Virus record (IMG/VR): IMGVR_UViG_3300032805_000004
Location: 1 to 64,000 of that record
Length of the DNA stretch: 64,000 nt
Strand: one strand, 5' to 3'
From: a virus
The notes beneath the pieces are model-generated. The model saw only the letters and a program-made list of their open reading frames with translations. It did not search any database and had not been told where the DNA came from. The translations under genes were made by a program, and so were the position numbers. This document shows, one piece after another, positions 46,541 through 50,455 of this stretch (its first letter is position 1; every line of letters starts with the position of its first letter).

Positions 46541-49500
46541 CTACTTGCCGCGTTCCCTGGCGGCGTGCTGCGCAGGCCAGTACCCCAGCGCCTCGTGATG
46601 ACGCAAGTTACAGAACCCGTGCGCCTGCGCCTCAGTCATCTTCGCGTGCTCCATAACCAGCCGGGTGCACCTGTCGAAGTCCCCGGGACTGCCCCATTTG
46701 ATCTCTTCGGCATAGGCGAAGTGGGTTGGGCCGCCGTGCGCCTCATGCGTCCAATACTCCCGCAAAGTCTCGGCGTTCCCGGCCTTGGCCACCGGGGCGG
46801 GCTCCCAGCGGTCGCACACGTCCGCCGGGTCGATCACCCCAGCCACCAGACTGCACGCATGATCTTCGTACATGCTGCAGGTGCCGCACGAACGGTCCGG
46901 GTCGGTCGCGGCGCGGTAGCGGACACTGTTCTTGCTCACCTTGACCCGCTTCGCCGATGCCGTACCGAGCGCGGCGAGGACCGTGTCGAGGTCGCCGGCG
47001 AGTTCGGGCCGCACCGCCGGGTTGTCCCGCAGTAGGGCCGGGTCCCACCAGGCGATCGCCTCGACCTGGTCGCCGTCGGGGTCGTCGGGGTTGGTGACCT
47101 GCCCGCGGCCATCGTCGATGGGCACGGTGTCCTCGTCGGGGACGGCGTGGACGAATCCTTGGTAGACGCCGTCTGGGCTTGTCCAGCCGCCAACAATGTC
47201 GCCGTCGGGTACCGTATGGCCGGTTTCTTCGGCCCACTCCCGCTTGGCGGCCTCGAGCGGTGTCTCACCGGGGTCGAGCTTCCCGCCGGGGAACTCCCAA
47301 CATCCGCCGTCAGGGTCGTCTTCACCGAGGGCGCGCTGCAACATGAGCACCCGCCCAGTCCCGCGAGCCTGCACCGCCAGCCCCGCAGCGGTAGGGCCGG
47401 CGGTCGTCTTGTTCGCCGGATCGGCGCCCTGATGGAACTGGAACGAATGCGTCTCATCCCACGGGCCGCCGTCATGGTCCACGAACCCGACATACGCCTT
47501 CACCGGCCGACCCAGCTTTTTGTACGCCAACGTCCGGTGATGCCCGTCGATGATTTTGACCTTGTCGTCGCCGGGTTCCTGCACCGCGACCACCGGATGC
47601 AGATGCGCCCGTTCATGCTTGATGTCCGCAGTGAACTGTTTCACCCGGTCGGGCTGGTGCGACGCCGCCCACGAGCCGACGTCGTCGTAGTCGACCCGGT
47701 CCTGGGGGATCAGCACCGGCCCGATCCACCGGGCGTCATCGATCCAGCCGAGCGCATGCTCGGGGTAGTTCTTGCGGAGCTGGTTCTTGACGTGCTCCGG
47801 CTCGACCGGGTTGGGATCCGTGAGGTCGGCGGCGTTCTTCACCAGAACAGGTACGGCGGCGAGGGTCACGGCACCGATCGCAGCCGGCGCGAGAGCGCAC
47901 CTGCAGTTATGCGCTATGATTCCGTTGGCGAAATACCATCCGTCAACGGTTTCGAGATTGTAGACATGACCAGACCAGTCGCAATGACGCCTGAGCTCAG
48001 CGACGCGATCGACGCCTACAAGAGCGGCAAGTCGCTCAGTGAGTGCGCGGCCATGTGCGGCATCGTTGGGCCAACCTTCAGGAACCGCCTCATCAAACTG
48101 GGCATCCCCCTGCGAGACACGCACTGGCTCGCCACATCCCAAAAGCTCGCCCTGCCAGTCGCTCTCATCGAGGAGTTCCACGGCGGCGCGACCATCAAAT
48201 CCCTCACCCTGCGCTACGGCCTGTCTGGTAATACCATCCGCCGGAGACTCACAGAGTCCGGGGTCAACGTCAACCGACGCATACACCCGACCCCACCAGG
48301 CCTTATCGAGGATTACCTCGGCGGACTCGCCGTCAAGCCCATCGGCGCCAAGTATGGACTGGACCGCAACACCGTCTACAGGATGCTCCGCGAAGCAGGT
48401 ATCGACGGCCGGAACCGGTCGGAAGCAATGCAACTGCGCTGGCAGCGCGCGAACGTGGCCGAACGGCGCATCATGCTTGACCGGGCCCACGAGACGGCCC
48501 GTGGACGAGTCGCCAGCGCTGAGGAACGCGGCCAGATCGCTACCGCGAAAACAGGCGTGACCTTCAGCGGCAATGAGACAATCCTCGGCACACTCCTCGC
48601 CGACCTCGGCTACGACATCGCCTACGGTGTCCCCTGCGGCCCATACAACATCGACGTAGTTATCGCCGGAACCGTCGCCGTGGAAGTCAACGGCGGTAAC
48701 TGGCATGAGACCGGACATCACCGGGCCCGCTTCGGCGAGCGTGCGCGCCACATCCTCGATGCGGGCTACAGCCTGGCGATCATCTGGGCAGACGATCGCC
48801 GCTACCCGGTCAGCGCTATCTGTGCGGAGCAACTCGGAACCCTCACCGAGATCACCCGCGGGCACCCATCCATCGGGCGTCAGCACTGGGTGATTCGGGG
48901 TGACGGGCACTTCCTTACCGTCCGCGAAGACGATGGTGACGAGGTCCCCTTTATAACGTCGAGCGGTCGCCGCGACAGCTGACGGCCCAGTTACCACCAC
49001 GCCAGCAGGGAAACAACGCGGGTGGCCCGGCGGTGACGGCACCCCCGACGGGAACAGATCCCCCGTCGGGATCGGCCCGGCGTCACGGTTCGCCTGGCAG
49101 GCCACGCAGACACGCCCATCATCCGGTGCGGTCAGCCACTCCGTACGCGTCACCCCAGCATCGCTGTAGCGGTCCATCGACGCGGCGGACACGGCGCGGG
49201 CGATCTCCGTGTGGGCGATCATCTCCGCCCGGTTCTTCACATCAAGAATGCCCGGCAAGTCACGGGCGACCGTGTCCACCGGCTCACCCGCCCGGACACC
49301 CTCACTGATCGCCTGCGCGAGGTCGTCCATCTTGCTGTCCGCGACCGCGCTGATCCCCCGGACGTCGTACTCGTCAAGGAGGTTCCGCAGCCCAGTCTCA
49401 TCGGCGATCTTTGCGGCGGCTTTCGGGTCGCCGGGTTTCCAGTCGCCCCAGTCCGGCGGCCCCGCATTCAGCACAGCCGTGGCGGACGCGTCACCCAGCG

Positions 49501-50455
49501 CGTAGCCCTCAGTCCACACGTTCGGCAGGATCGCGTCGAGCGCGGCCCGGATGATGTCAGCGACCGCACCGATCAACGACTGGACGGTGACCGGCAGTTT
49601 CCCCGCCTGCCAGTCAGCGATCAGGTCACGCGCCTTGCCGATGGCCGCGGCGAACGCCTGGCCGATGCGTTTCGTGTAGACGGCGACGAGGGCGAGGTCG
49701 CGTTGCCAGCCGGGCCAGTCAGGCTGCCCGCCACCACCGGGGGGCGTCTGCCCTTTTGGGCCCGCATCATCTGCCTTGACGAGCTCGACGTCTGCGGCGG
49801 ATTTGATATGACCGGCGGCGAGAACAGCTTTCGCCTGGTTGAACAGCTGGGTGGCCTGGCGGCGCAGTACGCCGGCCTTGTTCTCCAGCTTCGTGATCTG
49901 CTTCGTCTTCGTCGCGACACTGCTCGCCGTAGACGGTTTCTTCGCCGCTGCTGGTTGTTTCCCAGACGCTGCGGCCGACGACGCGGCAGGTTTCGCTGCG
50001 GTAGCCGGCTTCTTCCCAGTCGCGGTCGCCCGCGACGTCGCCGCCGCCACCGTAGCTTTAAGCGCGGCGACCTGCAGATCAATCTGGTGGGCTTGTGCGA
50101 GCAAAGCACGCGCCTGACTGCGAAGATCGGCGGCCTCCGCCTTCGCTGCGGCGGAGATTTTCGGCTTACCGCCGCCGCTGGGCTTCTTCGCCCCGCTAGC
50201 GGGCTTCTTCGCAGCCGGTGCCTTCGCCGGTTTCGCCGCGGGCTTCGGCGCCGAGATGCCGCCGGACTGGTTGTAAGCGGCAATCGCCGATTCCTGCTGC
50301 TGCACCGGGGTGCCTTGCCCGGTCGCCGAGAACTGGCCACCCTGCGTGGTGCCCTGCGGTGCCCGTAGCTCCTGTTTGGTGACGGTGTCGAACGCGGCGA
50401 GGGCAGCTTTGAGGACTGCCCCGGCCATCAGGTCCTCAACGTCGTTAGCGGTCAC
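46541..50455 (-). CDS. Polyvalent MuF (SPP1 gp7-like) minor head protein: MuF (intein-split) + ParB/Srx-like + NUDIX + HiPIP-like + C-terminal conserved domain
   Basis: RA..IA.TE..RA...EWLTA.D.RVC..C..N...PP.HPR|CRC; IIDGHHR; GGKLDPGETPLEAAKREWAEETG; C..C..Y....C..V.G.I.P...C..W. Confidence 0.88.
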   Translation of the reverse strand: MTANDVEDLMAGAVLKAALAAFDTVTKQELRAPQGTTQGGQFSATGQGTPVQQQESAIAAYNQSGGISAPKPAAKPAKAPAAKKPASGAKKPSGGGKPKISAAAKAEAADLRSQARALLAQAHQIDLQVAALKATVAAATSRATATGKKPATAAKPAASSAAASGKQPAAAKKPSTASSVATKTKQITKLENKAGVLRRQATQLFNQAKAVLAAGHIKSAADVELVKADDAGPKGQTPPGGGGQPDWPGWQRDLALVAVYTKRIGQAFAAAIGKARDLIADWQAGKLPVTVQSLIGAVADIIRAALDAILPNVWTEGYALGDASATAVLNAGPPDWGDWKPGDPKAAAKIADETGLRNLLDEYDVRGISAVADSKMDDLAQAISEGVRAGEPVDTVARDLPGILDVKNRAEMIAHTEIARAVSAASMDRYSDAGVTRTEWLTAPDDGRVCVACQANRDAGPIPTGDLFPSGVPSPPGHPRCFPAGVVVTGPSAVAATARRYKGDLVTIVFADGKEVPVTPNHPVLTPDGWVPAGDLGEGSELLRTDSADRVAAIVCPDDRQAVARIEDVARTLAEAGPVMSGLMPVTAVDFHGDGSGDNYVDVVWAAGDTVGDVVAEVGEECAEDCLIAAEGHACFRGSDLAAFLSAGDSSTGRLVGPVKHDAPFGHVRALPAQLHCFRPVPAVDTCFAEHPVDGVAVQSILGADGLDGESAEVILDKAWWGRVYASVDVDPGLCESPADGITRQAVAQGEGFDGRAAVELLDESDWQGELLGCGEPVRVSQGDAQFDEAVPEGWPNDAAHGRALTERLAALVGVDRVAELRRHCDWSGHVYNLETVDGWYFANGIIAHNCRCALAPAAIGAVTLAAVPVLVKNAADLTDPNPVEPEHVKNQLRKNYPEHALGWIDDARWIGPVLIPQDRVDYDDVGSWAASHQPDRVKQFTADIKHERAHLHPVVAVQEPGDDKVKIIDGHHRTLAYKKLGRPVKAYVGFVDHDGGPWDETHSFQFHQGADPANKTTAGPTAAGLAVQARGTGRVLMLQRALGEDDPDGGCWEFPGGKLDPGETPLEAAKREWAEETGHTVPDGDIVGGWTSPDGVYQGFVHAVPDEDTVPIDDGRGQVTNPDDPDGDQVEAIAWWDPALLRDNPAVRPELAGDLDTVLAALGTASAKRVKVSKNSVRYRAATDPDRSCGTCSMYEDHACSLVAGVIDPADVCDRWEPAPVAKAGNAETLREYWTHEAHGGPTHFAYAEEIKWGSPGDFDRCTRLVMEHAKMTEAQAHGFCNLRHHEALGYWPAQHAARERGK
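47906..49015 (-). mobile_element. Intein (370 aa) in the MuF HPR|CRC motif
   Basis: Starts CFPAG; block B VTPNHPVLT; block F VYNLET; ends HN followed by Cys; removal restores HPRCRC. Confidence 0.92.
47966..48982 (+). CDS. HTH-repeat + Vsr/DUF559-like endonuclease encoded antisense within the intein
   Basis: Three HTH repeats (Y..G.S....A...G....T....L...GI); E..L...L...G......PCGPYNID...AVEVNGGNWH...R...I...GY....IW; TATGAT at 47915. Confidence 0.85.
   Translation: MTRPVAMTPELSDAIDAYKSGKSLSECAAMCGIVGPTFRNRLIKLGIPLRDTHWLATSQKLALPVALIEEFHGGATIKSLTLRYGLSGNTIRRRLTESGVNVNRRIHPTPPGLIEDYLGGLAVKPIGAKYGLDRNTVYRMLREAGIDGRNRSEAMQLRWQRANVAERRIMLDRAHETARGRVASAEERGQIATAKTGVTFSGNETILGTLLADLGYDIAYGVPCGPYNIDVVIAGTVAVEVNGGNWHETGHHRARFGERARHILDAGYSLAIIWADDRRYPVSAICAEQLGTLTEITRGHPSIGRQHWVIRGDGHFLTVREDDGDEVPFITSSGRRDS

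Follow-up and report, generated by a model that had tools for sequence, protein, structure and literature searches.

A phage MuF intein with a predicted Vsr-like nuclease gene nested on its opposite strand

Inteins normally carry an in-frame LAGLIDADG or HNH domain. We describe here an intein of another build, located in a 64,000-nucleotide stretch of viral DNA from wetland metagenomes (positions 1 to 64,000 of IMG/VR record IMGVR_UViG_3300032805_000004; this whole stretch is hereafter called the window). It interrupts the gene of a MuF-like minor capsid protein on the minus strand, and the opposite strand of the same DNA carries the gene of a predicted Vsr-like nuclease. With the canonical bifunctional inteins PI-SceI and PI-PfuI the element shares a HINT domain that is interrupted at the same topological position by the coding sequence of a mobility enzyme, as well as a predicted life cycle of homing into intein-free alleles. 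It differs from them in that the endonuclease is a separate polypeptide encoded by the other strand, so that it would neither be made within the host protein nor be tied to host-protein expression. Computed in this work were the element's anatomy, the predicted folds of both products, the selection acting on each frame, the conservation of register and signals, and the polymorphism in presence of the intein.

The closest described systems are found in actinophages. Gosselin, Arsenault & Gogarten (bioRxiv 10.1101/2025.01.02.630785) have already reported anti-sense Vsr-like endonucleases in actinophage minor-capsid inteins, in a preprint that covers PhagesDB only and does not discuss promoters, start codons or phages beyond PhagesDB. 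The novelty of the two-strand layout, which an earlier note made from the window's letters had implied, is thereby lost, and the preprint reaches the same structural reading independently. The window element shows the traits by which these authors define their group, that is a MuF/minor capsid host, a Vsr-like open reading frame (ORF) antisense in a contiguous intein, and an unstructured middle in the intein's own frame. It differs from their inteins in its source, a wetland phage that is uncultured and has only distant relatives in GenBank; furthermore, the antisense ORF runs here from block F to intein residue 13, overlapping blocks B and F, with candidate start signals in the codons of blocks F and G, and the family as traced here includes phages that infect Proteobacteria as well as prophage-like contigs from many phyla. 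As cited in the same preprint (Gorbalenya 1998; Gogarten 2002), antisense LAGLIDADG ORFs occur in the Ssp dnaX and the Chloroflexus SpoVR-like inteins; to the extent that they are described there, they share with the window element an endonuclease on the strand opposite the intein and an open intein frame, but differ in nuclease fold, host genes and organisms.

Similar nucleases are known from other mobile elements. I-Bth0305I (PDB 3R3P; Taylor 2011) and the fractured-gene ORFs of Dassa (2009) share with the window nuclease an N-terminal modular DNA-binding region and a C-terminal Vsr-like domain, but these EDxHD/Vsr-like comparators carry NUMOD motifs where the window nuclease has helix-turn-helix (HTH) modules. 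I-Bth0305I resides in a group I intron and the fractured-gene ORFs lie between split-intein halves, whereas the gene is placed here antisense inside a contiguous intein. The locus was also considered as a fractured gene with a split intein of the latter type, a candidate that was rejected as two host ORFs are lacking: the host gene is a single ORF of 1304 amino acids, and the same holds for 128/128 loci.

An intein and a predicted nuclease gene on opposite strands

The host gene (46541..50455, minus strand) encodes, as judged from the ORF list and Pfam, a MuF-like minor capsid or head morphogenesis polyprotein of 1304 amino acids including the intein, in which the intein is preceded by a Phage_Mu_F domain (residues 378-481) and followed by a NUDIX domain (residues 1026-1142). 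The class-1 intein itself comprises 370 amino acids (47906..49015, minus strand) and interrupts the MuF motif between HPR and CRC. Its boundaries are exact and its splicing blocks complete: C1 (CFPAG...), T39-P-N-H42 of block B, GHVYNLE of block F, the terminal H369-N370 and a cysteine at +1. That is, the class-1 hallmarks, comprising an N-terminal nucleophile, TxxH in block B, a His-Asn end and Cys, Ser or Thr at +1, are all present, and C1, T39-P-N-H42, H369-N370 and Cys+1 are invariant in our alignment A2. The closest MuF protein in GenBank, that of Arthrobacter phage Mufasa8 (41% identity), is intein-free and reads ...PPIHPRCRCAMAP, which confirms the boundaries. Compared with this homologue and with an intein-free metagenome allele described below, the insertion is precise and in frame. 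A blastn search of the window against GenBank phages retrieved no close relative.

The intein frame is predicted to fold at its two ends only. The N-terminal lobe (residues 1-105; 48701..49015, minus strand), which holds blocks A and B with TPNH at 48890-48901, is modelled with a per-residue confidence score (pLDDT) of 82-98, and the C-terminal lobe (residues 330-370; 47906..48028, minus strand), with GHVYNLE of block F and NGIIAHN of block G, with a score of about 95; in the model, both lobes together form the HINT fold. Intein_splicing is the sole Pfam match within the intein frame and is split between residues 494 and 850 of the MuF ORF. The linker in between (residues 128-314; 48074..48634, minus strand) is open, has no Pfam match and scores below 50, so these ~190 residues are, according to the model, an unfolded antisense shadow of the nuclease gene that contains no folded domain.

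The nuclease gene itself (47966..48982, plus strand) encodes 338 amino acids followed by a stop codon and is recognised from the ORF list, Pfam, 25 database homologues and an AlphaFold model. Codon by codon, it is the exact reverse complement of the intein from codon 350 to codon 13, nuclease residue k lying opposite intein residue 351-k, and the ORF thus covers most of the N-terminal splicing lobe as well as blocks B and F. Pfam assigns REase_MTES_1575 (3e-7), HTH_28, HTH_23 and HTH_58 to the product. The 25 homologues (P0003-P0027) are 28-60% identical to it, and their nesting is inferred only where the termini show antisense signatures of block F/G and block B; three distant ones (P0020, P0021 and P0022) have an extra C-terminal Cys/His-rich tail (GxCHCGCG…GH). 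The AlphaFold model (mean pLDDT 85.9) consists of three three-helix modules followed by an alpha/beta domain. The former are HTH modules (residues 9-44, 65-97 and 113-143; 47990..48394, plus strand) according to secondary structure, the three HTH families and a profile match to the tandem-HTH protein 2lvs (2.5e-6); the latter is a Vsr/EDxHD-type nuclease domain (residues 199-328; 48560..48949, plus strand), for which the profile search returned the DUF559-type protein 3hrl (8e-5). A Foldseek search with the whole model gave no match at E <= 0.001, and VIA re-alignment of the model resolved the Vsr match, so that the domain is predicted to adopt a Vsr-like fold. E204, D230 and E240 are invariant across the homologues, H247 is conserved in at least 90%, and nearly all of the closer relatives (alignment A3) retain D265. 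In a comparison of motifs and spacing, the conserved Asp, His and Asp residues probably correspond to those of the EDxHD/Vsr-like comparators, and the 17-residue spacing of D230 and H247 equals that of D196 and H213 in I-Bth0305I.

Conserved motifs of one frame recur as complements in the other: WVIRG of the nuclease is the complement of TPNHP in block B, and the DFHGD motif conserved in the intein frame lies complementary to the nuclease strand VAVEV. Since the Vsr-like domain lies opposite intein residues 152-23, residue mapping and pLDDT blocks delimit ~80 codons (48710..48949, both strands) that are predicted to be folded in both frames, the minus strand contributing residues 23-102 of the HINT domain and the plus strand residues 249-328 of the Vsr domain.

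The earlier note had described a complete 370-residue intein in the MuF gene and, on the other strand, a 338-residue ORF with three HTH repeats and a Vsr/DUF559-like nuclease that is nested in the intein and overlaps block B. The first description holds with exact boundaries, the catalytic blocks and two intein-free sequences, the second with the Pfam, AlphaFold, VIA and 3hrl/2lvs matches, and the nesting with the codon mapping to intein residues 350-13. Profile and structure prediction of both frames, a check that the note had proposed, yielded a disordered middle in the intein frame and HTH modules plus a nuclease in the plus frame.

As a separate observation, the C-extein of the MuF protein (46541-47905, minus strand) is unusually long and contains the NUDIX domain (Pfam 3.7e-18), so that this MuF protein is a polyprotein in which enzymatic cargo follows the intein.

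Spread of the nested layout and selection on its two frames

Nesting, register and openness of both frames are retained in 128/128 loci; besides the window these comprise 11 loci in GenBank phages, 80 on IMG/VR contigs and 36 on contigs of bacterial genomes, and some of them have a G+C content of only 38-50%. A tblastn search with the nuclease matched 103 GenBank phage records, mostly under MuF or head-morphogenesis genes. At all 11 GenBank loci inspected, from phages of Gordonia, Mycobacterium, Salmonella, E. coli, Aggregatibacter, Vibrio, Idiomarina, Edwardsiella, Klebsiella and Cronobacter, the match is antisense to such a gene in the same register. IMG/VR yielded 455 related stretches, and the best 80 of these 455 were inspected and found to be nested alike (80/80). 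The same is true for 36/36 contigs from genomes and metagenome-assembled genomes of many bacterial phyla, a set found with alignment A3 and biased toward nested copies, as one of the two search patterns was the antisense of block B. When ten host ORFs were scanned with Pfam, eight contained Phage_Mu_F or Phage_min_cap2, in one case fused to a portal domain, and no capsid family was found by Pfam in the other two. Finally, a phmmer search of the intein against 1.84 billion representatives returned 4729 matches at E <= 0.001 and 201 at <= 1e-30; the shadow motif of the DFHGD type is present in 125 of the top 150.

Most of the GenBank phage loci inspected, among them some of widely used Salmonella and E. 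coli phages, lack an annotation of the nuclease gene, and one record annotates a partial ORF on that strand; annotation pipelines thus miss a real nuclease gene. In E. coli phage Snoke (L004:1893-2522), the mat_peptide given for the intein in GenBank is shorter than the 272-residue intein that we delimit (1899-2714), and the nuclease is unannotated. Host genes and insertion sites vary as well. In Mycobacterium phage Sejanus, gene 8 (L009:1905-2720) carries the unit in a MuF-protease fusion at …LQKVWV|C…HN|CTIDGKTRPSH instead of HPx|CRC, a different site suggesting that intein and antisense nuclease have moved between MuF targets. A Scytonema sp. contig from a metagenome-assembled genome (L097:1262-4051) has two HINT-type insertions in one MuF-like ORF, PT-HINT/Hint_2 at residues 65-195 and the intein with the antisense nuclease at residues 230-554. 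The C-terminal cargo downstream of the intein differs between host MuF proteins (L098:2-4477, L093 and L124), with a HipA_C-like stretch in one and DUF6883 in two. In the Gordonia phages Affeca, Angelicage and Keitabear (H19, H66 and H94), tblastn finds a Vsr-like antisense ORF under MuF-like genes; the preprint lists the cluster with these phages as having endonuclease VII-like out-of-frame homing endonucleases, so that these phages either carry both elements or have been classified differently.

Selection was assessed for each strand. The codons TTA, CTA and TCA are absent from both frames in the 12/12 loci first examined; in phages of 43-53% G+C, the extein codon usage assigns to this absence a probability of 1e-2 to 8e-7 per locus. 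The ratio of nonsynonymous to synonymous substitution rates (dN/dS, omega) was computed per frame for six pairs of relatives. In the middle of the intein, omega of the nuclease frame is 0.12-0.46 in four pairs and 0.76 in the most saturated pair, one pair being not computable, and omega of the intein frame is 0.75-1.2. In the N-terminal HINT lobe, this contrast is reversed in the closest pair, L003/L004 (0.11 for the intein frame vs 0.47 for the nuclease frame), and in the pair of the window with L002 (0.28 vs 1.32), and in the other four pairs the frames are alike or the nuclease frame is lower. These values indicate that in the middle of the intein the intein frame evolves neutrally and the nuclease frame is under purifying selection.

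Two further checks named in the earlier note, conservation of the antisense ORF in homologous MuF inteins and dN/dS per strand, were thus run, and both came out in its favour, as 128/128 loci keep the nesting and the nuclease frame is the constrained one in the middle of the intein, where the intein frame is near neutral. Its statement that both frames are free of stop codons over about 1 kb is correct, an openness that could arise by chance in the window but is unlikely to do so in the relatives of lower G+C content. Its description of the middle of the intein frame as antisense-like and without an endonuclease domain agrees with the missing Pfam match, the pLDDT below 50 at residues 128-314 and an omega of about 0.75-1.2. 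The analysis confirms that the two-strand layout is real and under selection, and supports the structural reading.

Candidate expression signals and an intein-free allele

Candidate signals for expression of the nuclease were counted in the 56 distinct sequences with an anchored block F and compared with the expectation under synonymous recoding. The ATG of the window nuclease (47966-47968) is the complement of the block F codon CAT for His350, and the codon opposite the nuclease start is this histidine in every anchored locus (CAT in 46/56, CAC in 10/56). The block F leucine codon is CTC in 47/56, which places GAGG about 8 nt upstream of the start, and 44/56 sequences match GGAGG in at least four of five positions vs 21.6 expected. 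Most relatives have GAGG or GGAGG where the window has a weak Shine-Dalgarno-like GAGA (47954..47957, plus strand), 8 nt before the ATG and complementary to the Asn-Leu codons AAT CTC of block F. Further upstream, a -10-like hexamer (TAnnnT with at least five of six matches to TATAAT) is present within the last ~20-27 codons of the intein in 45/56 sequences vs 10.5 expected with the intein's own codon usage, against a background of 8% in equal windows of the nuclease body; 20/56 have a perfect TATAAT. Most of these hexamers lie 45 nt upstream as complements of the Ile-Ile or Ile-Val codons of block G (ATT-ATA, ATT-GTA). In the window, the hexamer at this distance is TATGAT (47915..47920, plus strand), the complement of ATC-ATA (Ile-Ile); the codon ATA is used only twice in the 1304-codon MuF ORF, both times inside the intein.

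Contigs from four runs of the wetland metagenomes were compared with the window. A 362-nt contig of run X5 (depth 21.5) joins position 47869 to 49014 with 34 other letters between them and reads in frame on the minus strand ...SPPGHPR-CRCAAAPAALGTVTLAAVPVLVKN... (PPGHPR-CRCAAAPAALGT; HPR-CRCAAAP). This contig is a precise intein-free allele that co-occurs in the same wetland metagenomes; the intein-bearing contig of run X5 has a depth of 18, and loose contig ends in run X4 match the intein-free allele. Both alleles are strongly diverged in the tract next to the insertion site, which covers the first 12 codons of the C-extein (47870..47905, minus strand; 24/36 nt identical), as compared to 64/69 and 84/90 identical positions in the outer flanks. 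This divergence would fit co-conversion from a divergent donor and also divergence of the target site in an allele that was not invaded. Across the runs the intein occurs as a single variant and its flanks are polymorphic, which could simply be due to the intein being carried by a single strain.

Proposed life cycle and alternative explanations

Taken together, we consider the element to be a mobile intein of class 1 that belongs to the phage MuF/minor-capsid family and has its homing endonuclease encoded by a gene of its own on the other strand, a reading to which we assign a probability of roughly 0.8 and in which splicing, expression and cleavage are inferred. On the minus strand, MuF would be translated straight through the whole element, whereupon the HINT lobes (residues 1-105 and 330-370) would fold together and splice out the insert including the linker of ~190 residues, rejoining HPR to CRC. 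On the plus strand, the 338-residue protein with its three HTH modules and its Vsr/EDxHD domain would be translated from the complement of the block F histidine, with a ribosome-binding site and a -10-like element embedded in blocks F and G through the choice among synonymous codons. As these start signals lie within the splicing blocks, the mobile DNA would carry its own expression signals. The nuclease would then cut intein-free MuF alleles at or near HPx-CRC, and repair would copy the element into them. Its expression would be uncoupled from that of the late host genes.

Several points weigh against this proposal. The double openness in the window with its 66% G+C is not significant on its own (P about 0.34), the omega values of overlapping frames are not independent because they share sites, and conservation imposed by block B may inflate the pLDDT of the C-terminal hairpin of the nuclease. 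The loci compared (56 to 128) are related, so that P values overstate their independence, the effect for the -10-like hexamers being large nevertheless, and GAGA and TATGAT of the window are weaker than the signals of many relatives. A scan for the sigma-70 consensus, run on the window and on Salmonella phage sam, detected no plus-strand promoter, as a -35 element is missing; since it demands a -35 match, the scan is uninformative for -10-only or extended -10 promoters. The own promoter that the earlier note had postulated is thus left without a match to the consensus, but the idea gains comparative support from the excess of -10-like hexamers in the family. Finally, the polymorphism in the wetland samples could reflect one intein-bearing strain beside intein-free strains, with no ongoing homing.

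The strongest alternative is that the element is now only vertically inherited and the antisense nuclease is an intact non-homing remnant or has been co-opted, e.g. for DNA-binding regulation or as a nuclease against competitors. The preprint regards some Vsr-like cases as apparently vertically inherited (bioRxiv 2025.01.02.630785), and start signals below the family norm, as in the window, would be in line with such a state. However, the window nuclease has kept all family-invariant residues, its frame is under purifying selection in relatives, and the intein-free allele occurs at similar depth with a diverged 36-nt tract that fits co-conversion or target-site divergence, which together make this explanation improbable. 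Considerably less likely still is that the insert is not spliced as one polypeptide, MuF being either made in two pieces, as a fractured gene with a split intein, or functional with a tolerated insertion. It is true that the first Vsr-like endonuclease genes to be found lay between the halves of split inteins (Dassa 2009), but the MuF frame runs unbroken through the insert in 128/128 loci, which a split arrangement would not need, the class-1 catalytic residues are all present, and no internal start or stop divides the intein. The notion that the plus-strand ORF arose by chance, as mere antisense translation of G+C-rich DNA that yields no protein, can, for practical purposes, be regarded as refuted by the Pfam and Vsr matches, the avoidance of stop codons, the selection and the conserved nesting, even though antisense-stop codons are rare anyway at the G+C content of the window and many long spurious antisense ORFs surround the site.

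Returning to the mobile intein with an opposite-strand endonuclease, it is somewhat more probable than not that all these loci represent one ancient, obligately two-strand element that is specialised on the MuF superfamily across phages of many phyla, with the -10 element, ribosome-binding site and start codon of the nuclease gene in synonymous positions of blocks F and G and ~80 codons that encode two folded domains, the N-terminal HINT lobe and the C-terminal half of the Vsr domain. Such a reading goes further than the preprint and, if true, few natural examples of antisense dual coding would be as clear. The window itself is of modest value as one further member of a described family, and its one addition is the direct view of intein-bearing and intein-free alleles coexisting in the same wetland samples. 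The layout shows how a selfish element may separate two functions, splicing that protects the host gene and a nuclease that spreads the element, and their placement on opposite strands would give the nuclease its own expression signals and free it from being produced within a late structural protein. As both products have recognisable folds and clear functions, such inteins could serve as a natural system for the study of antisense overlapping genes.
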